Shown here: positions 6,171 to 27,739 of the stretch, piece by piece | How the letters are laid out: each line of letters starts with the position of its first letter | How positions within the stretch are numbered: position 1 is the first letter of the stretch | Notes under the pieces: model-generated | What the model saw: only the letters and a program-made list of their open reading frames with translations | Told to the model about the DNA's origin: nothing | Database searches by the model: none | Made by a program: the position numbers and the translations under genes | Assembly: GCA_964650485.1 (NCBI GenBank) | Contig: CAZYTX010000015.1 | Coordinates: 6,182-70,181, forward strand | Source of the DNA: an uncultured bacterium | Lineage (GTDB): Bacteria; RBG-13-61-14; DATKZS01 | DNA: 64,000 nt | Direction: 5' to 3'

Positions 6171-6473
6171 TTAATGAACGTGCCCTGTTTCAGGGACCCC
6201 GTCCTTTTTATCTAGTCCGAAGGGAGCATTAATCCACTGGTCGCGGCACGGTTTGCAAAGGAAGAAGGAGACCTTCTGAAAGACCTCGTCCGAGAGCTCC
6301 TGCTCGCTCTTTCGCTCAACCTGTTTCCACATTTGCGACATCTCTTTGGGCGAGTCGGGCGGCACAAGCGCCCCGTCGAAGTCCGCCACCGCGCTTATGG
6401 TCACCGCGTAGCTGGTCTCGCCGCTGTCCAAGAGCATGCCGCAGCGGGCGCAATTCTTATTCGCATTCCCCAT
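6171..6473 (-). CDS. Small zinc-ribbon protein (two CxxC pairs)
   Basis: 100 aa with C-A-R-C-G near the N-terminus and C-K-P-C near the C-terminus. Sits 13 nt upstream of the MCP start on the same strand. Confidence 0.4.
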   Translation of the reverse strand: MGNANKNCARCGMLLDSGETSYAVTISAVADFDGALVPPDSPKEMSQMWKQVERKSEQELSDEVFQKVSFFLCKPCRDQWINAPFGLDKKDGVPETGHVH

Positions 6474-8831: not shown

Positions 8832-9842
8832 CTATGGTTCTACGTATACCCGCTGGCGCCTGGACGGAGGGCTCTGGTTGGGCGCCGCCGCGTTGTCCAC
8901 CGCGGTGATCGCGTACTCGTACTCCGCGCCGGCCCTGGCGGTCCGGTCGAGGTAACCGGTCTCTTTCAGGGGGTCGAGGAATAGCTGCTTGAAGTCGGTC
9001 TTTCCCGGCCTCCTCCTCCATACCAGGTACCCGTCGAGGTCCGGCTCCTGGTTCATAAGCCAGGAAAGCTGAACACCCTCGCCGGTCCAGGCGGCGCTCA
9101 CCCCCTTGGGCGCCGCGGGCGGGACCTTGTCCACCGGGACCACGCTGACCCGGGCCGGCGGCCCCTCCACACTCGGGTACCCGGGCGGCTGGATCATTGC
9201 CCTTATCTCGTAGAAGTATTGGGCCCCGTTCTCGACGGGGCCGTCGGAGAAGCGGGTCGCGGCGATGGGCTCCGGGTTCACTGGATGGAAGGACTCGAGT
9301 GCCGGGCTCCCGGTCCGGTACAGGTTATATAAGAGGCCGGGTGGTGCGCCTTCCGGGGGCCGCCATGTTACGTCCGCGTGACCGTCGCCCGGCTCGGCCG
9401 CGGGGTTCTTTGGCGCACCCGGCGGCTGCGGGTTCATGGCCTTCACCGGCCCCGCGGCCTCGCCGCTCTCCTGCTCCGCTGATACGCCCCGGACCTTGTA
9501 AAGAGCGGCCCGGCCGTGCTCCAGGGAGCAGTCGGAAAAGCGGGTCTTGTCCGTGCTTTCAATGACCATATACGAAGGCGATCCCCTGTGGCCGGGCTCC
9601 TCGGCGCGCAGCACCTGGTAGCTTGTCGCGGCCACCTTTTGCGGGGGCTTTTCCTCCGGCGCTGTCCAGGACAGCTCTACGCAACCCTCGCGCACCAGCG
9701 CGGCAAGGTCCCCGGGCCTGGCCGGCGCCGGGACCAGCGGCGGCTCCGGCAAGGCCTTCACCCCGCAGTAGCAGAGCAGGAGACCGGCCGCGCACAAAGG
9801 CGTGTATATTATAGGGTATTGGAGGCGCTTGCCTGAGATCAT
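8832..9842 (-). CDS. Secreted protein with three fibronectin type III-like repeats
   Basis: N-terminal hydrophobic segment with LLLCYCG. Three ~90-aa repeats, each starting with a P-rich linker then a Y/W-rich beta motif (LSWTAPE..., VTWRPPE..., LSWLMNQ...). Start ATGA overlaps the hisA stop. Confidence 0.5.
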   Translation of the reverse strand: MISGKRLQYPIIYTPLCAAGLLLCYCGVKALPEPPLVPAPARPGDLAALVREGCVELSWTAPEEKPPQKVAATSYQVLRAEEPGHRGSPSYMVIESTDKTRFSDCSLEHGRAALYKVRGVSAEQESGEAAGPVKAMNPQPPGAPKNPAAEPGDGHADVTWRPPEGAPPGLLYNLYRTGSPALESFHPVNPEPIAATRFSDGPVENGAQYFYEIRAMIQPPGYPSVEGPPARVSVVPVDKVPPAAPKGVSAAWTGEGVQLSWLMNQEPDLDGYLVWRRRPGKTDFKQLFLDPLKETGYLDRTARAGAEYEYAITAVDNAAAPNQSPPSRRQRVYVEP

Positions 9843-10573
9843 TCCCCCGCGTCCTTTGCAATCTTTATGGCCCGGGCCAGGTCCAGGGTCCCCTCGTAAA
9901 TGGCCCTGCCGGTGATCACCCCTATGACCCCGTCCTCCTCGTGCTTTTTAATCTGCATAATATGCTCGATAGTCTTGACGCCCCCGGAGGCTATGACCGG
10001 GAGGCTTATTTTCCGTGCCAGGTCCGCGGTGCTCTCCACCGACGGCCCGGTCATCATGCCGTCCCTTTTTATGTCCGTGTATATGATGGCGGCCACCTCC
10101 ATTCCCTGGTAGGGCGCGGCCAGCTCGGCCGCGGGGACGTCGGTGAGCTCGGCCCACCCCTTGACCGAGACCTTCCCCTCCCTGGCGTCCACGCCCACCG
10201 CTATCCTTTTCGGGTAAGCTTCACTCGCCCTTTCCACCAGTTGGGGGTCCTTGTGCGCCGCGGTGCCCAGCACCACCCGGTGCACGCCCTCCTGCAGGTA
10301 TGACTTTATCGTATGCATGCGTCGCAGGCCGCCGCCCAGCTCCACGGGGACATCCACGGCCTTTACAACATCGAGCACCGCCTCCCTGTTCACGGGCCCT
10401 CCGGCGAACGCCCCCTCCAGGTCCACCACGTGTATGAGCTCCGCGCCCATGGACGCCCACTTGCGGGCCACGGCAGCAGGGTCGTCCGAGTAGGCCTTGT
10501 CCCTGTCCATCATGCCCTGCTCGAGCCTGACCACCCTGCCCCCTTTCAGGTCTATGGCGGGAATGACAATCAT
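9839..10573 (-). CDS. hisA: HisA-like (beta/alpha)8 isomerase: 1-(5-phosphoribosyl)-5-[(5-phosphoribosylamino)methylideneamino]imidazole-4-carboxamide isomerase
   Basis: MIVIPAIDLKGGRVVRL...GGGLRR...VVLGTAA...ASGGVKTIEHI are HisA/HisF family signatures. The start ATG at 10573 lies in the conserved leader module. No other his genes are nearby. Confidence 0.65.
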   Translation of the reverse strand: MIVIPAIDLKGGRVVRLEQGMMDRDKAYSDDPAAVARKWASMGAELIHVVDLEGAFAGGPVNREAVLDVVKAVDVPVELGGGLRRMHTIKSYLQEGVHRVVLGTAAHKDPQLVERASEAYPKRIAVGVDAREGKVSVKGWAELTDVPAAELAAPYQGMEVAAIIYTDIKRDGMMTGPSVESTADLARKISLPVIASGGVKTIEHIMQIKKHEEDGVIGVITGRAIYEGTLDLARAIKIAKDAGE

Positions 10574-17237: not shown

Positions 17238-17960
17238 TCAGCGCGTCCTTCTCGCAAGGAAGATGAAATCACCCGTCTGAAAACCCGGCCTGTCCAGGCG
17301 ATAAAGCCCGCTCTTCTCCCCTGATTCTCCTTGCCGGGAAAGGCAGGGGACCCGGGCCATGTCCCTGAAAAAGGCCCGGGGCTCATATCTTTTTCCCATG
17401 ACCTCCTGGCAGAGCGCCAAAAAGGACTCCCTTGAGAACACCCCGGGCAGGAGGTCGAACATGCGGGGCGTGAGCAGGGCCAGCTCACGCAGCCTGGCCC
17501 TGGCCGCGGCCAGTATCTTCGGGTGGTCGAATGCCAGCTCGGGCGGCCTTCGCAAGGGGAACAGCCCGGCATCTCTTGCGTCGTCGCCCGCCCGGGGCCT
17601 CGCCCTGTGCGGCCTCACAAGCGCCATGTATGCCGCGGAGATCACCCTGGCCCGGGGGTCACGCTCCGGGTCACCGAACATGCCGACAGGTATCAGGCTC
17701 ACCCTCTTGAGACCGGTCTCCTCGCAAAGCTCGCGCCGGGCCGCCACCTCCAGCGGCTCGTCAATCTCCACGAAACCGCCCGGGAGGGCCCAGTACCCCT
17801 TGTAAGGGTCGTGCCTGCGCTGGATCAAGACCACCTTCAGCCTCTCGTCTGAAAAGGTGACTATAACCACGTCGCAGGCCACCGATGGCTTTTTGTACTT
17901 CGAGTGGTCATACCCTTGCGGCGCCGTGTGCCCGGGCCTCTGAAAGCGCTTGTTTTGCAT
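17238..17960 (-). CDS. NUDIX hydrolase with C-terminal winged-helix-like extension (NrtR/ADP-ribose pyrophosphatase-like)
   Basis: Nudix box GGFVEIDEPLEVAARRELCEETGL. An extra C-terminal domain of ~90 aa resembles NrtR-type regulators; that part is inference. Confidence 0.6.
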   Translation of the reverse strand: MQNKRFQRPGHTAPQGYDHSKYKKPSVACDVVIVTFSDERLKVVLIQRRHDPYKGYWALPGGFVEIDEPLEVAARRELCEETGLKRVSLIPVGMFGDPERDPRARVISAAYMALVRPHRARPRAGDDARDAGLFPLRRPPELAFDHPKILAAARARLRELALLTPRMFDLLPGVFSRESFLALCQEVMGKRYEPRAFFRDMARVPCLSRQGESGEKSGLYRLDRPGFQTGDFIFLARRTR

Positions 17961-18046: not shown

Positions 18047-19648
18047 TTGGAATGTAGTAGTGATGGGATTAACATGCCTTCTGCGGAAGAACATAGAAGA
18101 TCGGTGGAAATGATCGCGGACGAGATGATGGCCGAGCTGGCCCGGGTTTTCCCTGTATGCACCATGAGCGACGAGTTCCACTACTTCCCCCAGGCACTGC
18201 CAGGGCGGGACGAGCCTGCAAGCTGGGACGACTTTTCGCCCGAGACCCTCCAGCAGGTGATCAAGAAACTTTCTTCGTGGGAAAGCCTGCTTGCAGGGGT
18301 GGGTGAAAAAAACGCCGACCTGGACACCGTTATTGACGCCTCCATGCTCTCCAGGGCCGCACTCATAATCCGGGAGCAGATAGAGCTTTGCCGCTTCCAC
18401 GCCCGCGAGCCCACCTTCTATCTGACAGTGGCCTGCATGGGCCTTGCCCATGCTCTCGAGAGCAAGGACGCTTCTCTCTTCCGGGAGCGGGCCAGGGGTC
18501 TGGACGGCTTCCTTTCCCAGGGCATGAGAAACCTCGAGCGGGCGCCCCTGCCCTTTCTCGAGCTGGGCATCGAGATGGCCGGCCGGACCAGGGATTGGCT
18601 TGCCAGCCTGGCCGGGGACACCCCCGGGGCCGGGCCAGCGGCCGAGGCAATGGCTCGGTTCGAGCGCGGCCTGAAAGAGCTCCAGCCTTCGGAGGACCTG
18701 CTGCTTGCCCCGGACCTCTACGAGCGCATAGTGCGCGACCATATCTGGTGCGGCGCCGGGGCATTGGAGGTCGAGTCCGAGCTTGACCATGAGATCGAGG
18801 AGCGGACCGCTGTACTGGAAGAGCTGGCCCGAAAAATCGAGCCCGGCTCGAGCTGGCGCGAGGTCCTGGCTAACATGCCCGCGGAGCCCCTGCCCGCGGC
18901 CGGCCTGGTCGGTCTTTACCGGGATGCGGTGGAGGACCTTGCAAGGCACTGCCTTGAAGCGGGCCTTGCAACAGAAGAGCTTGTAAGGACCAATCCGGTG
19001 CGGGTGGCGCCGGTGCCTCCGCACCTCCGGCCCGTGCGCAGCGCCGCGGCCTACAGCATGCCGCCGGGGCGCCCTCCCAGGGGCGGGACGTTTTTCATCC
19101 TAAGCCATGGGCTCTCGCACGACCTTCGCCACACCCTGCAACGAGACTATCGGCTGCTCACAGCGCACGAGACCTGGCCCGGGCATCACCTCCTGGACGC
19201 CACCCGCTGGGGCCTCGTGCAAAGGCTGCGCCGGCCCATGGAGTTCCCCCTTTTCTACGAGGGATGGGCGTGCTTTGCCGAGGGGCTGCTGGCGCAGACA
19301 GGGTGCTTGAGCTCGGGCCCGGACCTCATACTGCTGAACAAGAGGCACCTGCTCAGGGCGGTGCGCGGAAAAGTGGACATAGGGATACAGACCGGGAGCA
19401 TGAGCCTTGATGATGCCGCCCGGTATCTTTACGAGGCCGGCTTTGATAAGGAGGGCGCCCTGCCGCTTGCAAAAAGGTATGCGTTGAAACCTGGATACCA
19501 GCTATGCTATGCTTTCGGCCTCAGAAAGTTCGAGGGGATTTATGGCCGGTCTCACATGGACCCCGCGGAGTTTGCCAAAGCGGTGCTGGGTCGGGGGGAG
19601 ATCGGCTTTGATAACCTCTCGAGAATACTGGAGCGAGAAAACAGATGA
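18047..19648 (+). CDS. DUF885 family protein (putative HExxH-like metallopeptidase)
   Basis: LLTAHETWPGHHLLDATRW matches the HE.vPGHH motif of DUF885. 533 aa, no signal peptide. Stop overlaps the next gene's start by 4 nt. An alternative start at 18074 is possible. Confidence 0.6.
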   Translation: MECSSDGINMPSAEEHRRSVEMIADEMMAELARVFPVCTMSDEFHYFPQALPGRDEPASWDDFSPETLQQVIKKLSSWESLLAGVGEKNADLDTVIDASMLSRAALIIREQIELCRFHAREPTFYLTVACMGLAHALESKDASLFRERARGLDGFLSQGMRNLERAPLPFLELGIEMAGRTRDWLASLAGDTPGAGPAAEAMARFERGLKELQPSEDLLLAPDLYERIVRDHIWCGAGALEVESELDHEIEERTAVLEELARKIEPGSSWREVLANMPAEPLPAAGLVGLYRDAVEDLARHCLEAGLATEELVRTNPVRVAPVPPHLRPVRSAAAYSMPPGRPPRGGTFFILSHGLSHDLRHTLQRDYRLLTAHETWPGHHLLDATRWGLVQRLRRPMEFPLFYEGWACFAEGLLAQTGCLSSGPDLILLNKRHLLRAVRGKVDIGIQTGSMSLDDAARYLYEAGFDKEGALPLAKRYALKPGYQLCYAFGLRKFEGIYGRSHMDPAEFAKAVLGRGEIGFDNLSRILERENR

Positions 19649-21054
19649 GTTTTGCGAATAACAACATTGAACCGGCGCAGTTCCAGGGGTTCCACTCGGA
19701 ATGGAACCTGGGGAGTCCGGGCGGTTGGGACTACCAGAGGACCACGCAGGAGATAGGCAAAAAGGTGTGGGAGAGGATCAACAGCATAAAGCCCGTCGGC
19801 GTCGATCTCGACTTTGACCATCCGTACATGTCGCCGGTGATAACCCTGGCGCACATGCTCGTAAGGGAGCATAAGAAGAGGCGAGGCTCGACCCCGGGCC
19901 TGATAGCGGTGGTTGCGGAGGAGGAGTCGCTAGAGGACGTGACCGAGAACATCAACCTGGCGGCCCAGCTCGACTCCATGGACGGCATCAGCGGTGCGCT
20001 GTTCGCTCCCCACGAGCTGGAGCTTGAAAACGGGGCGCCCTGCTACAAGGGGGAGCCGGTCTCGATCATCTTCATGGACTTCAACTCCGACGTGCTGCTT
20101 TCGCTCCACAAGAAGCACGGCCTGGACCCGCTCATGCGTGCGGTGAAACAGGGCATGGTTATAAACCCCCGCGGCACCGAGCCCATAAACGTAAAGAGCG
20201 TGTTCGAGGTATTGACCGGTCCGGAGAGCGGCCGTTTCCACCCCGAGATAGTGAGGCGCACTCCCTGGACCCGGCAGTTCTATGGCCGCTCCACCGAAGG
20301 TCCGCAAGGGGAGCAGATAAAGGACCTGCCCGAGTGGACGCGGAAGAACTGGGAGCGGCTGGTGCTGAAGCCCGAGCGGGGCTACTCTGGCAAGGGCGTG
20401 AAGGTTGGCGGCGTTGACAAGGAGGACGCGGTGGAGGCGGCCCTGGAGGCCGAAAACTACATAGTGCAGGAGAAGATACCGCTCGCCCTGTGGGGGGAGG
20501 ACGTTCCCGGGCCGGACAAAGAATCTGGCGCGGTGGTCATGAAGAGGTTCCAGACCGACTTCCGCTGCTTTATCGGCGCGGAGGGGCTGCTGGGCTTTTT
20601 GGGCAGGATCGGGGGAGTGCCCACCAACGTGGGAAGCGGAGGAGGCATGCACCCGCTGGCAGTGCTTCGCTCCGAGGTGTCGCCGCGTGAAGCGGTCACG
20701 CGCATGAACGAGGTCATCGCGGGAATGGATTACTCTGACCTTGCCGGGATTCAGGCCATGCAGGAGCAGATGGCCTGCGATCAAAGGTTCACATACCTCT
20801 TGGGACCCATCAAGATAGCCATGCGGCCCCGGGTGCTCACACCCGGACAACTGAAAGCACTGGAGGGTTACTCCAGGGCCATGTGGGAGGACTGCCTTAC
20901 CCTGGAGAAGATGTGGGAGCAGGGCGCGCTGGAGAGGTTCATAAAGATTGACCCGGAGGAACTGGAGATAGCCAGATCACAGCCCTGGCACGGGTCCGCG
21001 GCCATCATCGCCTCGGACGGGCTCTACAGCTTCGGGGCCCACCCGGAGGGGTAA
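19645..21054 (+). CDS. Circularly permuted ATP-grasp superfamily protein (GspS-synthetase-like amide/peptide ligase)
   Basis: 469 aa. ...LKPERGYSGKGVKVG...ENYIVQEKIPL... resembles the nucleotide-binding core of CP-ATP-grasp (DUF404/DUF407-like) proteins. Family assignment is from memory of the motif pattern only. Confidence 0.45.
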   Translation: MSFANNNIEPAQFQGFHSEWNLGSPGGWDYQRTTQEIGKKVWERINSIKPVGVDLDFDHPYMSPVITLAHMLVREHKKRRGSTPGLIAVVAEEESLEDVTENINLAAQLDSMDGISGALFAPHELELENGAPCYKGEPVSIIFMDFNSDVLLSLHKKHGLDPLMRAVKQGMVINPRGTEPINVKSVFEVLTGPESGRFHPEIVRRTPWTRQFYGRSTEGPQGEQIKDLPEWTRKNWERLVLKPERGYSGKGVKVGGVDKEDAVEAALEAENYIVQEKIPLALWGEDVPGPDKESGAVVMKRFQTDFRCFIGAEGLLGFLGRIGGVPTNVGSGGGMHPLAVLRSEVSPREAVTRMNEVIAGMDYSDLAGIQAMQEQMACDQRFTYLLGPIKIAMRPRVLTPGQLKALEGYSRAMWEDCLTLEKMWEQGALERFIKIDPEELEIARSQPWHGSAAIIASDGLYSFGAHPEG

Positions 21055-21827
21055 TGGACCTCCATCCCGACCCGGACTGGTGGAAGACCCTTTTCGACCA
21101 GGTGTACCTTTTGACCGACGCCCGGTCGGTGTGCGACGCGGACGTGACCCGGAAAGAGGCCGCGCTGGTGGCTGATATAGCCGGCCTGGGCCCGGGCCAC
21201 AAGGTTTTGGACCTGTGCGGGGGCCACGGCAGGCACAGCATGGAGCTTTCCGGCAGAGGGTGCAGGTGCACGGTGTTCGACTACTCCGAGTTTCTGCTGG
21301 ACAAGGGCAGGGCCGAGGCCGAGGAGCGCGGGCTCGATATAGAGTTCGTGCAGGGCGACGCCAGGAGCACGGGACTCGAGAGCGAGTGCTTCGACCGGGT
21401 GCTCATACTGGGCAACTCGCTCGGCTACCTTTGGGAGCCGTCAGCGGACCTTGACATTCTCCGCGAGGCCCACAGGGTGCTCCGGCCGGGCGGGATGATA
21501 GTGCTGGACGTGACCGACGGAGGCCGGGCAAGCAAGCTCTCGCCCCTGGCCTGGCACGAGACGGGGGAGGACGTAGTGGTGTGCAGGCAGCGCCTCCTCC
21601 ATGACGGTTCCGTATACACGCGCGAGCTGGTGATGAGCAAAGAGAGGGGCCTGGTCAGGGACTGCACCTACCAGGTGAGGCTCTATGACCGCTTGTCCAT
21701 CCTGGACCTGGCCGAGCGGGCGGGTTTCGAAGGCGTCCGGGTGATAGACTTCAGAAGAGACCAGGACGGGGGCGACTACGGTTTCATGAACAACCGCATT
21801 ATCATATGCGGGGGTAAGCAGGAGTAA
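21054..21827 (+). CDS. Class I SAM-dependent methyltransferase
   Basis: VLDLCGGHGRHSMEL (motif I, G-x-G-x-G) ... VFDYSEFLL ... DRVLILGNSLGYL ... LRPGGMIVLDV. Start codon overlaps the upstream stop (TAATG). Confidence 0.75.
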   Translation: MDLHPDPDWWKTLFDQVYLLTDARSVCDADVTRKEAALVADIAGLGPGHKVLDLCGGHGRHSMELSGRGCRCTVFDYSEFLLDKGRAEAEERGLDIEFVQGDARSTGLESECFDRVLILGNSLGYLWEPSADLDILREAHRVLRPGGMIVLDVTDGGRASKLSPLAWHETGEDVVVCRQRLLHDGSVYTRELVMSKERGLVRDCTYQVRLYDRLSILDLAERAGFEGVRVIDFRRDQDGGDYGFMNNRIIICGGKQE

Positions 21828-21833
21828 GGATTT

Positions 21834-22517
21834 ATGGACAGGTGCGTCATTGAGTGGCCTGGCAGGGCTTTGCTGCCCAGGACCGTTGTAAGGCTGAGCC
21901 GGGCAAAGAGGCGGTTCAAGGGGAAGGCCCTTTTCGAGCGCATGCTGGGGATCAGCGGGACCATCGAGTTCTACTTCGCATTTGACGACCCCTACAGCGC
22001 CATAGCCCTGCCCAAGATGATGGAGCTGGTCTCGGACAGGGAGCTTGAGATCGAGCTCTTCCCCCTGGCTGAGCACGGCATACCCGGAGACCCTGACATA
22101 GACAAGAGGCGGGCCTACTCGCTGGCGGACGCCGCCAGGCTGGGAAAGAGGCTCGGGGTGGAGATAAACAGGACCAGCCCGCTCGATCCCGACAAGGTCC
22201 TCTTCCTTGCCGCCTGGGCTGAAAGCGCCCGGGAGGTCATGTGCATGGACGACTTCTCCGAGCGGGCCATGGCAATGCTCTGGGCCAGGGACCAGGAGCC
22301 CGGGCCGGGGTCATACGTCGAAATATACGAGCGCACCGTGGGCATTGACCCGCTCGATGACCCCTCCGAGTACGCAGAGGAGCTCGAGGCCAACTTGAAG
22401 AGGCTCCGCAGGAAGGGGCACTGGGAGGTCCCCGCGGCCCTGGTGTATGGCCAGTGGTACTTTGCACACGAGCGGCTGGAGGCAATCGAAGAGCGGCTCG
22501 ACTTTCTGGGAAGGTGA
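21834..22517 (+). CDS. DsbA-like thioredoxin-fold protein, 2-hydroxychromene-2-carboxylate isomerase / kappa-GST family (paralog 1)
   Basis: IEFYFAFDDPYSAIA ... HWEVPALVYGQWYFAHERLEAIEERL parallels paralog 2. The true start may be the internal ATG at 21942 (MLGISGTIEFYF). Confidence 0.55.
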   Translation: MDRCVIEWPGRALLPRTVVRLSRAKRRFKGKALFERMLGISGTIEFYFAFDDPYSAIALPKMMELVSDRELEIELFPLAEHGIPGDPDIDKRRAYSLADAARLGKRLGVEINRTSPLDPDKVLFLAAWAESAREVMCMDDFSERAMAMLWARDQEPGPGSYVEIYERTVGIDPLDDPSEYAEELEANLKRLRRKGHWEVPAALVYGQWYFAHERLEAIEERLDFLGR

Positions 22518-22520
22518 TCC

Positions 22521-23114
22521 ATGGAAAAGATCAGGGTCGAGTTCTTCTTCTCATTCAGAAGCCCCTACTCTTACCTGGCCGGGCCGCGCGCGTTCGCATT
22601 GCCGGAGAAGTACGGCGTCGAGCTGGTCTTTCGGGGGGTCCGGCCCATGGTGACCAGGGGGGTGCCGTTGCCATCTGCCAAGCGGCTCTACATCCTGCTG
22701 GATGCGGCCAGGGAAGCCGAGCGGCTGGGCATGCCCTTCGGAAAGATATACGACCCTCTTGGCGAGGGTGCTCTGCGATGTCTTTACGTGGCCGAGCACG
22801 CAAAAGAGAGCGGCAGGCTCTCCGAGTTCGTGCTGGCCGCGAGCAGGGCCGTCTGGGCCGAAGGGGTGTGCGTGGCCGGGGACAGGGGCCTCAAGAGGGT
22901 GTGCGACTCAGTGGGTCTCGACTGGGAGGGGTGCAGGGCCGCGCTCGAAAACCCCGAGTACCACCGGCGCATCGAGGACAACGTGACGAGGCTCCTGGAG
23001 CTGGGCCACTGGGGCGTGCCCCTGTTCCACGTGAACGGCGAGCTCTTCTGGGGCCAGGACAGAATACCGGACCTGGAGGATGCCCTGGCCCGTGTGTGCG
23101 AGAAACGGGAATAG
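22521..23114 (+). CDS. DsbA-like thioredoxin-fold protein, 2-hydroxychromene-2-carboxylate isomerase / kappa-GST family (paralog 2)
   Basis: VEFFFSFRSPYSYLA ... HWGVPLFHVNGELFWGQDRIPDLEDAL is the HCCA-isomerase/DSBA pattern. Starts 3 nt after paralog 1. Confidence 0.6.
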   Translation: MEKIRVEFFFSFRSPYSYLAGPRAFALPEKYGVELVFRGVRPMVTRGVPLPSAKRLYILLDAAREAERLGMPFGKIYDPLGEGALRCLYVAEHAKESGRLSEFVLAASRAVWAEGVCVAGDRGLKRVCDSVGLDWEGCRAALENPEYHRRIEDNVTRLLELGHWGVPLFHVNGELFWGQDRIPDLEDALARVCEKRE

Positions 23115-24245: not shown

Positions 24246-24374
24246 CTTTGCCTCTCCTTATGGCACTACAGTATTTTACGCTCTTATGGAAATGTCAACT
24301 TGAAAGAAAGTTTATGAGATTTCTTGACAATAGACATACTAACTTGCCATGATAGACCCTCTAAGGCGGAAAGT

Positions 24375-25535
24375 ATGAAAGAGTTCAAGCCGCGGGAACC
24401 AAAGCCCGACTTCCAGGCCATGGAAGCAATGATAAAAGGCGAGATCGAGCCCGAGAAGGTCCGCCTTGCCGAGCTGGTGGTTGACTTCGAGGTCATCGCC
24501 TGGGTGCTTGACAAGCTCTTCAACGAGAAGATGATGACCCTGGCCGAGGCCTACCACCCGGACGAGATCAGCGCCTCCCTCAAGCAAGGCAAGGGGGTCC
24601 AGCCCATGGCCGGGGAAAAGGAGAGGCTCTTCTGGAAGCAGTACGCGTCCTTCTTTTACAGGATGGGGTACGACTTCGTGACCGACCTCGGACCCATGGG
24701 CTACCTGCTCTTCATGACCACGCCTTCGCTAAGGATCGCCGACGACACCGCGGAGCTCTCGCGCGGCAAGAGGCTGTGGGCGGAGGAGGGCAGGGGAAAG
24801 ATCGCCTCCTGGGATGACTTCGAGAGATTCAACTGGGACGGGCTGAAGCTGAACCTGGAGGCATGGGCAGAGTTCTGGGAGAGCACCCTGCCGGAGGGCA
24901 TGAAGATAGCCGTGAACTGCAGCCTTTACGAGCAGGTGCTTGAGAGGCTCATGGGCTACGAGGGGCTGTTCTACAACCTGGTTGACCAGCCCGACCTTGT
25001 AAAGGCGGTGTTCGACAAGTGGGGAGAGATAGTGGAGGGCTTCTACCTGCAGGCGATAAAAAGCCATGCCGCGGGGCTCATCTTCCACTCGGACGACCTG
25101 GGCTACAAGTCCCGCACCATGATCAGCCCGGACCAGCTCCGGGAGTACGTGTTCCCCTGGTTCAAGAGGTACGCCCAGATCGCGCACTCCGAGGGCAAGA
25201 TGTTCTGGCTGCACTCGTGCGGGAACCTGCTCGGGGTGATGGACGACCTTATTGACCACGTGGGCATAGACGCTTTCCACTCCTTCCAGGACCAGATCAT
25301 ACCCGTGGCCGAATTCAAGAGGGAGTACGGGCACAGGGTGGCCGCGCTTGGCGGCGTGGACGTGGACAACCTCGCCAGGATGGACGAGCAGTCTCTCCGG
25401 GCCTGTTGCCGCGGGGTGCTCTCCGGGTGCATGCCCGGCCGCTATGCATTCGGCTCGGGCAACTCCATCACAAACTACATGCCCGTCTCGAACTACCTTG
25501 CCATGCTGGAGGAGGCGGGAAGGTTCAAGGTATGA
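24375..25535 (+). CDS. Uroporphyrinogen decarboxylase (URO-D) family protein, MtaA/CmuA-like methylcobamide methyltransferase or decarboxylase
   Basis: ...FHSDDLGYKSRTMISPDQLREYVFPWFKRY...FWLHSCGNLLGVMDDLIDHVGIDAFHS... matches the URO-D/MtaA TIM-barrel signature. Start chosen at MKEFKPRE with upstream AAGGCGGAAAG. Confidence 0.55.
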   Translation: MKEFKPREPKPDFQAMEAMIKGEIEPEKVRLAELVVDFEVIAWVLDKLFNEKMMTLAEAYHPDEISASLKQGKGVQPMAGEKERLFWKQYASFFYRMGYDFVTDLGPMGYLLFMTTPSLRIADDTAELSRGKRLWAEEGRGKIASWDDFERFNWDGLKLNLEAWAEFWESTLPEGMKIAVNCSLYEQVLERLMGYEGLFYNLVDQPDLVKAVFDKWGEIVEGFYLQAIKSHAAGLIFHSDDLGYKSRTMISPDQLREYVFPWFKRYAQIAHSEGKMFWLHSCGNLLGVMDDLIDHVGIDAFHSFQDQIIPVAEFKREYGHRVAALGGVDVDNLARMDEQSLRACCRGVLSGCMPGRYAFGSGNSITNYMPVSNYLAMLEEAGRFKV

Positions 25536-25917: not shown

Positions 25918-26913
25918 CTACTTCTCCACTATGGTCTCTTCGATCTTGACCCCGAAGTGTCGGCCGGCCTGCTCCAGGTACGCCAGCACCCGGTCCCCCG
26001 GTTTCAGCTCGGTGATGGATGCGGGCTCGCCGCCCGGCCGGGTCAGCCTTATGGTCTCTGCGTTCTGCATGACCAGTGACAGGGGCTCTCCCTTGTAGGC
26101 CGCTTCCACCAGCATCATGGGCCTTTTCTCCACCTTGGCCCTGCCCACGAAGCCGACCTCGGTGTTTCCCTTGTGGTCAACTATCAAAACCGGGTCGCCT
26201 ATGCTTATGTCCGCGAGGTAGGCTGTCTTTCCCTCGGGCGCCCGGGTGTATGCGTGCACCGCGCCGGCGTTCACGCGGAAGGGCCGGGTGGCGCAGTACG
26301 GGGTCTCCACGTTCTCGGCGTGCACCAGGAACATGCCCGAGCTTGCGTTGCCCACCAGGAGCCCCTGGCCGGGCGCCATGTTGGTGATGGTGTCAACGCA
26401 CACCCTGTCCCCCATTCCCAGGGGCTTTATTGACTTTATTGTGGCCTGGACGAGCTTTAGCTTCTCGCCCTTCTCCCGTATCACCGCCGCGGTCTTTTTA
26501 ATCTCGGAGAGGTCGTCGCTGTCCAGGACCACGCCTTCCACGCCCCTCTCCATTATCTTCAGGGCGATGCCGGCCTCCTCCGCGCTCCGCACCCATGCCA
26601 GCAGCCCCTTCCCCCGCTTTGCGATCAGGTTCTCCAGGGGAATGACCTTCCAGTCGCTGGTCTTTACGATCACCTTGTCCGCGCGCTCGCGCATGACCGC
26701 GGCCTCGTCCTTCTGGGATGATACCTTGCGCTCGACCACGTCCTGGCCGAGCTTTAAGTCCCCGTCCGGGGCCACTGTCTTCATCAGCCCGAGCGCATGC
26801 ACCTTGTCGGTCTGGCCCTTTGGCACCAGCACCGCTTCGGCCCCGCTCTCCAGGGCGGCGGTCACCACGTTTTTCTTATACGGTCTGGCATTGACCCAGA
26901 AAGTCCTGGCCAT
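25918..26913 (-). CDS. aroB': 3-dehydroquinate synthase II (archaeal-type AroB', acts on 2-amino-3,7-dideoxy-D-threo-hept-6-ulosonate)
   Basis: 331 aa. The N-terminal MARTFWVNARPYKKNVVTAALESGAEAVLV ... and length/architecture match DHQ synthase II (PF01959), and it is co-located with an AroA'-type aldolase. Confidence 0.65.
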   Translation of the reverse strand: MARTFWVNARPYKKNVVTAALESGAEAVLVPKGQTDKVHALGLMKTVAPDGDLKLGQDVVERKVSSQKDEAAVMRERADKVIVKTSDWKVIPLENLIAKRGKGLLAWVRSAEEAGIALKIMERGVEGVVLDSDDLSEIKKTAAVIREKGEKLKLVQATIKSIKPLGMGDRVCVDTITNMAPGQGLLVGNASSGMFLVHAENVETPYCATRPFRVNAGAVHAYTRAPEGKTAYLADISIGDPVLIVDHKGNTEVGFVGRAKVEKRPMMLVEAAYKGEPLSLVMQNAETIRLTRPGGEPASITELKPGDRVLAYLEQAGRHFGVKIEETIVEK

Positions 26914-26944
26914 TACATGCTCCTTTTCTGCATGCGCTGTCTGT

Positions 26945-27739
26945 TCAACCCTTGAGGACCTTCATGGCCTGGTCCGCGCTCTTGCCCTGGTGCACGATGG
27001 CGCATGCGGCCGCGACCAGCTTCGCCGGGGTCTCGTGCTGGAAGGCGTTTCTCCCCATGGATAGCCCCGCGGCCCCGGCCTTGATGGCGCCCTCGACCAT
27101 CTTGAGGGTGTCCTCGTCCGACAGCTTGGACCCGCCTGCTATGACCACCGGCACCGGGCACCCCTCGACCACCGTCTTAAAGGACTCGGCAGAGCCGGTG
27201 TAAGGCACCTTGACCAGGTCCGCGCCCAGCTCCGCGCCCAGCCGCGCGGCTATCTTCACGTGCTCCACGTCTTTTTCGTCCTCGACCTTGGGACCGCGCG
27301 GGTACACCATGGAGAGGAGGGGCATACCCCAGAAGAGCGCGTCCTCGGCCACCCTGCCGAATGCCTCCAGCATCTCGCCCTCGTTCTCCGCGCCTATGTT
27401 CACGTGTATGGACACCGCGTCCGCGCCCAGTTGTATGGCCCTCTCCACCGAGCACACCAGCACCTTGCGGTTGGGGTCCGGGGAGAGGCTGGTGCTCCCG
27501 GACAGGTGCACGATGAGCCCTATGTCGCGGCCGTACTTCCTGTGGCCGGCGCCCACCATGCCCCCGTGCTCGACCACGGCGTTGGCGCCCCCCTCGGCCA
27601 CCTTTTCCACCGCCTCGGGAAGGTCTGTTAGACCCTTGATCGGCCCCACCGTGACCCCGTGGTCCATGGGCACGATCACGGTCTTGCCGGTCTCGCGGTT
27701 CATGATCCGCTCTTTGCGGATCTCCTTGCCTATACCCAT
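26945..27739 (-). CDS. aroA': 2-amino-3,7-dideoxy-D-threo-hept-6-ulosonate synthase (AroA', DhnA-type class I aldolase)
   Basis: [21 protein letters not shown] ... LVKVPYTGS ... VVIAGGSK is the DhnA/FbaB-family Schiff-base aldolase pattern. It sits directly upstream of aroB'. Confidence 0.65.

Follow-up and report, generated by a model that had tools for sequence, protein, structure and literature searches.

A three-gene cassette of ATP-grasp-type ligase, methyltransferase and DUF885 protein adjoining a tandem pair of DsbA-like genes in an uncultured bacterium

Five genes of an uncultured bacterium (NCBI GenBank assembly GCA_964650485.1, contig CAZYTX010000015.1) follow one another closely at positions 18,047 to 23,114 of a 64,000-nucleotide stretch, which comprises positions 6,182 to 70,181 of the contig's forward strand and is called the window in the following. 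The first three genes, encoding a DUF885-family protein, a 469-amino-acid ligase of the ATP-grasp fold (named X hereafter) and a methyltransferase that uses S-adenosylmethionine (SAM), recur side by side in many genomes, while the last two, encoding DsbA-fold proteins (DsbA1 and DsbA2), were found together with them in just one other testable locus. Hence, two conserved modules placed back to back are proposed, i.e. a ligase/N-methyltransferase/carboxypeptidase cassette for a small peptide-like metabolite and a separate DsbA pair, a reading to which we give about an even chance. The five genes are:

18074 to 19648, + strand: DUF885-family putative zincin, cytoplasmic form, 524 amino acids from ATG (NCBI gene call; the mechanical open reading frame begins at TTG 18047), first gene of the cassette.
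19645 to 21054, + strand: X, 469-amino-acid ATP-grasp carboxylate-amine ligase by fold, not covered by any Pfam or NCBIfam model, core of the cassette.
21054 to 21827, + strand: 257-amino-acid class I SAM methyltransferase, predicted relative of NmbA (Pfam Methyltransf_25, 5e-19).
21834 to 22517, + strand: DsbA1, 227-amino-acid divergent protein similar to DsbA and to 2-hydroxychromene-2-carboxylate (HCCA) isomerase ('A-type'), with Asp52 at the position of the SPYS Ser; opens the two-gene module.
22521 to 23114, + strand: DsbA2, 197-amino-acid DsbA-fold protein similar to HCCA isomerase and kappa-class glutathione S-transferase (kappa-GST) ('B-type'; Pfam DSBA, 1.4e-22), with FRSPYS kept (Ser14).

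A preliminary description of this DNA, made from the sequence alone, had reported five co-directional genes that overlap or nearly abut, and all five plus-strand open reading frames (ORFs) as well as their junctions are indeed present. DUF885 and X share an ATGA (19645-19648), and the remaining genes are set apart by 6 nucleotides (GGATTT, methyltransferase/DsbA1) and 3 nucleotides (TCC, DsbA1/DsbA2), as described; the TAATG joining X and the methyltransferase gene lies at 21052-21056, one base off the 21051-21056 first given. No terminator-like site was seen between the five genes in a terminator scan of the plus strand, and the two modules are probably co-transcribed here.

Loci linked to the cassette were collected in a scan of one genome per species, which gave 375 stretches encoding a relative of X, with 80 loci being retained. 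These are metagenome-assembled genomes, mostly labelled Desulfobacterales, Syntrophobacteraceae, Deferrimicrobia or 'Deltaproteobacteria', and in a minority Dehalococcoidales, Aquificota, Victivallales or Limnocylindria. The five window proteins were compared with 85 loci by tblastn, and positions were counted only in non-duplicate loci with sufficient flank (testable loci). The methyltransferase gene lies directly downstream of X in 66 of 66 testable loci, its start usually 3-21 nucleotides past the end of X, and DUF885 is found upstream of X on the same strand in 58 of 61. The adjacency of DUF885, X and the methyltransferase is far above chance, so that for the first three genes the co-occurrence across genomes expected by the preliminary description was observed and mere chance adjacency is refuted. 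In cassette loci, the DUF885 proteins are about 27-51% and the methyltransferases 41-63% identical to those of the window (tblastn). When all ORFs from 90 amino acids upwards in about 80 loci were clustered, only three families proved to be conserved, present in 79, 67 and 63 loci, and the next family occurred in 6. Further candidate partners (ABC ATPase, major facilitator superfamily (MFS) transporter, alpha/beta hydrolase, LpxC, FabH, aminotransferase and others) were each present in at most 6 loci, without a common theme. As three families are conserved while their neighbours vary, the unit is a three-gene cassette in changing surroundings. Small ORFs of 25-95 amino acids near the cassette, clustered from about 80 loci, contained no conserved family, and the clusters obtained were alternative-frame artefacts of neighbouring genes. 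A system for ribosomally synthesized and post-translationally modified peptides was also rejected: no conserved precursor ORF was found, and the small ORFs upstream of a distant version of the cassette (locus L087, see below) are unrelated to one another.

Sequence searches alone do not reveal what kind of enzyme X is. The window protein has no match in Pfam, NCBIfam or the PDB sequences (phmmer), 38 aligned homologs gave just matches of E 0.08-0.3 to ATPgrasp_ST, ATP-grasp_3 and ATPgrasp_YheCD in Pfam, and a profile search of the PDB returned a single sub-threshold match to the ATP-grasp of cyanophycin synthetase (E 1.2), which covers precisely the LVLKPERGYSGKGV motif of X. The family is large, with 1899 clusters (90% identity) passing E 1e-3; the 119 non-self homologs among the 120 listed are 63-71% identical to X, none of them carries a Pfam domain, and all named ones are called 'hypothetical protein'. 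The ATP-grasp identity of X being invisible to sequence searches, it was therefore established by structure and remote profile comparison. An AlphaFold2 (AF2) model was built from the alignment of the 38 homologs, which is also the basis of residue invariance in X, and reached a predicted local distance difference test score (pLDDT) of 87.3 and a predicted TM-score (pTM) of 0.86. Using Foldseek against the PDB, this model was matched with a probability of 1.0 to homoglutathione and glutathione synthetases, YjfC, RimK, GshB and synapsin; Cp1B, the ATP-grasp enzyme of E-64 biosynthesis, is among its structural relatives as well. The model shows the three domains of the ATP-grasp fold and can be superposed on solved members. 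Owing to the confident model and the matches of probability 1.0 to such ligases, X is considered an ATP-grasp carboxylate-amine ligase by fold, and it is placed as an amide ligase in the clade of glutathione synthetase, GspS and circularly permuted ATP-grasp proteins. Three elements of X are candidates for ATP and Mg binding:

19699 to 19707, + strand: E19-W-N21, putative ExN Mg-binding motif in the first beta-strand (E14-21 in the model); E19 and N21 invariant in the 38 homologs.
20359 to 20400, + strand: LVLKPERGYSGKGV, strand of the putative ATP-binding Lys K242 and Gly-rich loop; L239-P243, R245-G249 and G251 invariant.
21016 to 21018, + strand: D458, putative Mg ligand in the last beta-strand (E455-462 in the model); invariant.

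Altogether K242, Q275, D305, R307, N328 (in NVGSGGG), E19, N21 and D458 are invariant in the alignment. X displays the features by which ATP-grasp enzymes are recognized, a Lys on a beta-strand with a Gly-rich loop as well as an Asp and an ExN motif, but matches no curated sequence model. From their conservation, K242 is a candidate ATP ligand, and E19-x-N21 together with D458 would bind Mg.

For remote relatives of X, 1.84 billion representatives were searched exhaustively at profile level, and two kinds were obtained. Relatives of the first kind are deeply diverged full-length proteins with 25-30% identity. Those of the second kind (about 430-490 amino acids) match positions of approximately 60-335 of X with their C-terminal part and score 17-27 bits against the CP_ATPgrasp_2 model, i.e. 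just under its cut-off of 32. In profile-profile comparisons, residues 19-343 of X align to positions 127-453 of such CP_ATPgrasp_2-like proteins (E 1e-45) and residues 350-455 to positions 7-111 (E 4e-10), whereas putting residues 345-469 of X ahead of 1-344 results in one end-to-end match of 428 columns (E 1e-54). An end-to-end match being obtained only after re-permutation, X is circularly permuted relative to the CP_ATPgrasp_2-like proteins and shares common descent with the CP_ATPgrasp families; eukaryotic glutathione synthetase and GspS are relatives of it as well. In the re-permuted alignment, E19 and N21 fall on the invariant E127 and N129 of the CP_ATPgrasp_2-like group and D458 on its invariant D115 (RLD); the motif LVLKPERGYSGKGV aligns with the consensus LVLKPNRxYGGxGV of these proteins. 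The fold of X is the same as that of CP_ATPgrasp_2 proteins (e.g. PDB 3n6x, Mfla_0391) and eukaryotic-type glutathione synthetases, and ExN, NPRG/K184, PWTR, LVLKP..G.GV, VQE and NV.SGGG are common to X and CP_ATPgrasp_2-like proteins or glutathione synthetases. What differs is the order of the segments: a helical segment and the Asp strand, about 110 residues that are N-terminal in CP_ATPgrasp_2-like proteins, are C-terminal in X, and while members of the CP_ATPgrasp families start with the helical segment, the Asp strand and ExN and carry NVSxGGG C-terminally, X begins with the ExN strand. As the ExN strand comes first and the D458 strand, paired with it, comes last, the chain termini of X would split the Mg-binding hairpin. 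This permutation state is new and is not known to have been described for the ATP-grasp fold. X had been called a circularly permuted ATP-grasp ligase, which applies to its fold and to the re-permuted alignment; membership in CP_ATPgrasp_1/2, in contrast, is supported neither by score nor by segment order, and the profile check proposed for this protein gave no CP_ATPgrasp or GSP_synth match in Pfam.

Compared with known systems, X also differs in its partners. Circularly permuted ATP-grasp systems reportedly include alpha-E and transglutaminase partners, as Iyer et al. are said to have described in 2009; these are absent here, and the methyltransferase and DUF885 take part instead. GspS, YgiC and YjfC share no sequence-level similarity with X, which has an obligate methyltransferase partner. 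Unlike GspS with its fused CHAP amidase, X has no amidase domain, all 469 amino acids being ATP-grasp, and the hydrolase is a separate protein, the DUF885 zincin. The likeness to the GspS/amidase system would consist in a ligase being coupled with a hydrolase of the opposite reaction, as bifunctional GspS couples ligase and hydrolase of the reverse reaction.

The third gene was correctly recognized as encoding a SAM methyltransferase, as its Methyltransf_25 match shows. The best solved relative is 9RI2 (NmbA; E 7e-24, 30% identity over 221 aligned positions), with residues 8-232 of 257 matching residues 15-240 of the 9RI2 chain, which comprise Rossmann core and cap. The next PDB match reaches 7e-12, and further matches include the N-methyltransferases CypM, CcbJ, MitM and glycine-sarcosine N-methyltransferase. 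NmbA places a methyl group on the amine of the cysteine in bacillithiol, its substrate cleft is lined by conserved arginines, and NmbA clusters were delimited at 35% identity in a similarity network (PMC12719100). Both proteins have a class I fold, an N-terminal W-rich segment and Arg-rich conserved positions, but NmbA is partnered with BshA/B/C and the cassette methyltransferase with an ATP-grasp ligase. Sequence comparison suggests that the cassette methyltransferase is a relative and not an orthologue of NmbA.

The DUF885 protein is a clear member of its family over its full length (PF05960, 124.8 bits at a cut-off of 32.4), which one paper has placed in the Peptidase_MA clan. Conservation was evaluated in 57 cassette-linked proteins and, separately, in 36 database homologs, and residues are numbered from the ORF beginning at TTG 18047. 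At a conservation of at least 95%, the 57 proteins share the blocks AHE..PGH.LLD..R and FYEGWA...E, which contain two motifs:

19166 to 19186, + strand: H374-E-T-W-P-G-H380, putative metal-binding and catalytic motif; A373, H374, E375, P378, G379 and H380 conserved to at least 95% in the 57 proteins and invariant in the 36.
19256 to 19282, + strand: Y404-E-G-W-A-C-F-A-E412, containing a candidate third metal ligand; Y404, E405, G406, W407, A408 and E412 conserved to at least 95%.

The spacing in HETWPGH differs from that of a canonical HExxH, while the fold (AF2 model, pLDDT 92.7) matches zincins, and the nearest folds outside the own family are those of MATCAP, followed by M32 and M3 carboxypeptidases. 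All of these lack the approximately 200 extra N-terminal helical residues of DUF885. The HExxH-like hydrolase of the preliminary description is in line with the conserved HExxPGH...YEGWA..E and the predicted zincin fold.

Among distant relatives of X, the cassette was encountered in altered forms:

L095, 729-10125 (X 27% identical): TIGR00375-family protein, 49-amino-acid ORF, GNAT, weak PvcA-like isonitrile-synthase homolog, DUF885 (27%), X, methyltransferase (40%), BacD/DdaF-like L-amino-acid ligase and 202-amino-acid ORF.
L087, 4479-9170, and L086, 6-4325 (X about 30% identical): MATCAP-family zincin (PF08014, TIGR02421 'QEGLA'), L-amino-acid-ligase-type ATP-grasp protein, X and methyltransferase (39%, E 2e-58).
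L090, 6001-9200: CP_ATPgrasp_2-like relative called as a 722-amino-acid protein fused to the N-terminus of an M32 carboxypeptidase, followed by two M32 fragments.

The pair of X and methyltransferase is regarded as ancient because it persists in L086, L087 and L095, where X is only about 27-30% identical. In L095, the surroundings of the cassette look like a small biosynthetic cluster, and the fusion in L090 is either real or due to frameshifts in a long-read assembly. Two further distant relatives of X (P0135, P0219) stand alone without partners, so not all relatives of X are cassette-bound; a metagenome scan with an alignment of the distant X subfamily returned one locus. Taken together, the zincin beside X-type ligases is of the DUF885, MATCAP or M32 family. 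DUF885 and MATCAP/QEGLA have the pattern HE..GH ... YEG(L/W)A.F.E in common, the YEGWA motif resembling QEGLA/YEGLA, and the sole local BLAST match between the window's DUF885 protein and the MATCAP-family protein of L087 is YEGWACFAE/YEGLAVFTE. Homology of these two could not be detected at profile level (hhalign probability <1%), and their relation rests on fold and short motif. The three zincins are thus structural relatives that may act on peptide C-termini or short peptides, and the recurring dipeptide-forming L-amino-acid ligases suggest that the substrates are free amino acids or short peptides. The bacterial MATCAP homologs of L086 and L087 have an ATP-grasp partner, as tubulin MATCAP has tubulin tyrosine ligase (TTL); the searchable literature holds nothing tying MATCAP to bacterial ATP-grasp enzymes and no functional paper on DUF1704.

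The last two genes had been described as tandem paralogs resembling HCCA isomerase and kappa-GST, in agreement with 29% identity between DsbA1 and DsbA2 (over 185 amino acids, E 1e-18) and with the best PDB match of DsbA2, HCCA isomerase 2IMD, which extends from end to end (E 1.2e-14) and aligns FRSPYS with FLSPFS. DsbA1 scores 24.5 bits with Pfam DSBA, under the cut-off of 25.6. In kappa-GSTs, the Ser of this motif is the catalytic, nucleophile-activating residue. Of the two paralogs, which had been proposed for a check of this residue, DsbA2 keeps the Ser of SPYS, whereas DsbA1 and its four orthologues (L001, L092-L094), which share an N-terminal extension, have an Asp instead (FDDPY). The family of DsbA2 comprises 1187 close homologs. 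Those listed, apart from the protein itself, show 59-81% identity, stem from varied phyla (Nevskia, Stenotrophobium, Paraconexibacter and Baekduia are among the named sources) and are usually annotated as HCCA isomerase. With this enzyme DsbA2 has the F-x-S-P-(Y/F)-S motif in common, but unlike HCCA isomerase it is always paired with a divergent Asp paralog, the pair occurs in anaerobes and aerobes, and no naphthalene-pathway genes are located near it.

The DsbA pair is, by its distribution and sequence relationships, an independent two-gene module. A DsbA homolog was found downstream of the cassette in 1 of 61 testable loci (L001), and no DsbA family occurred in more than two loci in the neighbourhood clustering. 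In L092, L093 (Nevskia soli) and L094, DsbA2 is preceded, with a 4-nucleotide overlap, by a 223-231-amino-acid protein without Pfam match, and neither X nor the methyltransferase is present. The attachment of the pair to the cassette here and in L001 may be a lineage-specific recruitment or plain juxtaposition. In L001, a 318-amino-acid ORF (8959-9921) that belongs to no assigned family and appears Lys/Asn/Ile-rich with a hydrophobic N-terminus is seemingly inserted between DUF885 and X. In L094 (3111-5591), the pair lies directly downstream of, and overlaps, the gene of a 402-amino-acid GST (GST_N_3/GST_C), which fits a glutathione-type function. In L093 (JONR01000001.1, 1-864 and 4333-5600), it lies about 3.5 kb from a 601-amino-acid DUF885 gene, with DUF1302 and AraC-type regulator genes in between; this is a second case of DUF885 close to a DsbA pair, but it may be coincidence.

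Gene order and its conservation, folds, conserved catalytic motifs, the permutation of X and the swapping of partners are the observations from which we infer a small-molecule substrate, N-directed methylation, carboxypeptidase action and an order of steps for the cassette. As its structural relatives glutathione synthetase, GspS/YgiC and Cp1B do, X would activate a carboxylate as acyl-phosphate and join it with an amine, giving an amide in a small, probably acidic amino-acid-derived molecule; all three cassette proteins possess many invariant Arg residues. The NmbA-like methyltransferase would N-methylate a free amine of the product of X or of its precursor, and DUF885, a predicted cytoplasmic gluzincin, would hydrolyze the C-terminal amide in turnover, proof-reading or processing, thereby opposing the ligase or maturing its product. 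As DUF885 is a fixed partner of X and interchangeable with MATCAP-family or M32 proteins, a C-terminal peptidase acting on the product of X is predicted. Similar logic is known from GspS synthetase/amidase, N-acetylaspartylglutamate (NAAG) synthetase with glutamate carboxypeptidase II (GCPII), and the TTL/MATCAP cycle. Several observations weigh against this proposal. Three loci have no DUF885 within 8 kb upstream of X: L019 and L073 carry X and methyltransferase, and L039 ends ahead of the methyltransferase position. Therefore, the peptidase is not strictly needed in cis, and in these lineages it is either encoded elsewhere or dispensable. The 30% identity of the methyltransferase to NmbA is below the 35% limit of the NmbA clusters, which makes N-directed methylation an analogy, and the searchable literature contains no demonstrated activity of DUF885 in any organism. 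Moreover, X is unusually conserved (listed homologs 63-71%) compared with DUF885 and the methyltransferase, which could equally point to a macromolecular target. Finally, the lineage of L001 and L012 has the five-gene order as well (X 67%, DsbA2 72% identical), and a functional link of the DsbA pair with the cassette is conceivable within this lineage.

The main rival, which we consider unlikely, is a protein-tail cycle resembling tubulin tyrosination, in which X would attach an amino acid to a conserved cellular protein, at its C-terminus or on an acidic side chain, DUF885 would take it off again and the methyltransferase would methylate the same target. Such a cycle would agree with MATCAP, a tubulin tyrosine carboxypeptidase, being the closest outside fold of DUF885, with a true MATCAP-family protein (PF08014/QEGLA) replacing DUF885 in one subfamily, with the strong conservation of X in varied housekeeping contexts, and with the methyltransferase being related to CypM, which methylates peptides at their N-terminus. 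However, distant cassettes recruit BacD/DdaF-type ligases that join free amino acids, neither a conserved target gene nor a conserved small ORF was found near the cassette, NmbA, to which the methyltransferase is closest, has a small thiol as its substrate, and small-molecule ligases head the structural match list of X. A secondary-metabolite cluster, producing an N-methylated 'Trojan-horse' toxin or antibiotic of dipeptide type with DUF885 as self-protection, activation or export-coupled peptidase, appears quite unlikely to us. It would account for the PvcA-like homolog, GNAT and BacD/DdaF-like ligase next to the cassette in L095, the L-amino-acid-ligase-type enzyme in L086 and L087, the structural relationship of X to Cp1B, and an MFS transporter following the methyltransferase in L027, L048 and L050 (the fourth member of this cluster, in L081, is on the other strand at a distance of about 5 kb). 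Yet in the main family no further genes for biosynthesis, resistance or export are conserved next to the cassette, the window cassette is situated among housekeeping genes, and a highly conserved X in hundreds of species fits a core metabolite better than a variable antibiotic.

According to the preliminary description, all five genes form one thiol pathway, in which GspS-like ligation and methylation are followed by thiol-dependent isomerization or cleavage by the DsbA pair, yielding a thiol conjugate. The genes are at most 6 nucleotides apart here, with no terminator-like site in between, the arrangement recurs in the L001/L012 lineage, the nearest relatives act on thiols (glutathione synthetase/GspS for X, NmbA for the methyltransferase, HCCA isomerase/kappa-GST for DsbA2), and the DsbA pair of L094 directly follows a GST. 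Nevertheless, a DsbA gene after the cassette in just 1 of 61 loci, the pair standing alone as its own two-gene unit in three others and the many close homologs of DsbA2, e.g. in Nevskia or Baekduia, speak against a single pathway and leave isomerization as its final step without comparative support; we regard it as very unlikely, and possible just as a lineage-specific extension. A slim chance is given to the related idea that in anaerobic Desulfobacterota and their neighbours in sediments the three-gene cassette makes a new N-methylated low-molecular-weight thiol, or else a related acidic pseudopeptide serving as cofactor. Here, X would act in the manner of glutathione synthetase or GspS, the methyltransferase would cap the cysteinyl amine as NmbA does, DUF885 would be a recycling carboxypeptidase, and the DsbA pair of the window would be a recruited transferase or isomerase using the thiol. 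Desulfobacterota and their sediment neighbours are largely without a known thiol buffer, and the searchable literature contains nothing on Desulfobacterota thiols.

The window surroundings of the cassette are of housekeeping type, with genes for formyltetrahydrofolate synthetase (FTHFS), methylmalonyl-CoA mutase, 3-dehydroquinate (DHQ) synthase II, a DeoC-family aldolase and an M20 peptidase. A riboswitch or other RNA element at the locus was not pointed to by any Rfam match, and an anti-phage defence system was discarded as PADLOC gave just a generic methyltransferase-domain match. The neighbouring genes comprise:

17238 to 17960, - strand: Nudix protein, divergent from DUF885, similar to the ADP-ribose-responsive repressor model NF050029 (98 bits, cut-off 400).
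24324 to 25535, + strand: URO-D-fold protein (Pfam URO-D, 1e-13), weakly similar to MtaA/CmuA-type methylcobamide methyltransferases; its NCBIfam matches are far under their cut-offs.
25918 to 27739, - strand: DHQ synthase II (PF01959, 1e-123) adjoining a DeoC/LacD-family aldolase, a combination of genes that corresponds to the archaeal-type (ADH synthase) start of the shikimate pathway.

As far as searchable literature and curated family libraries show, the cassette is undescribed, although it combines known kinds of enzymes, i.e. an ATP-grasp ligase, a tailoring methyltransferase and a zincin. The paired 'HCCA isomerase' annotations hide a conserved pair of one Ser-retaining and one Asp-containing paralog. 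The X family, unnamed and without Pfam or NCBIfam model despite about 1,900 clusters and relatives in several hundred species-representative genomes, can now be addressed as a family of ATP-grasp ligases by fold. DUF885, a large family with three solved structures, gains a concrete, testable context beside an amide ligase and a putative N-methyltransferase. All three cassette enzymes are of small size and soluble, which makes them accessible to assays in vitro. If the thiol reading were true, this would be the first function for DUF885 and a third circular-permutation state of the ATP-grasp fold, and if the product were a cofactor, osmolyte or thiol of sulfate-reducing or syntrophic sediment bacteria, a gap in the physiology of these organisms would be filled.

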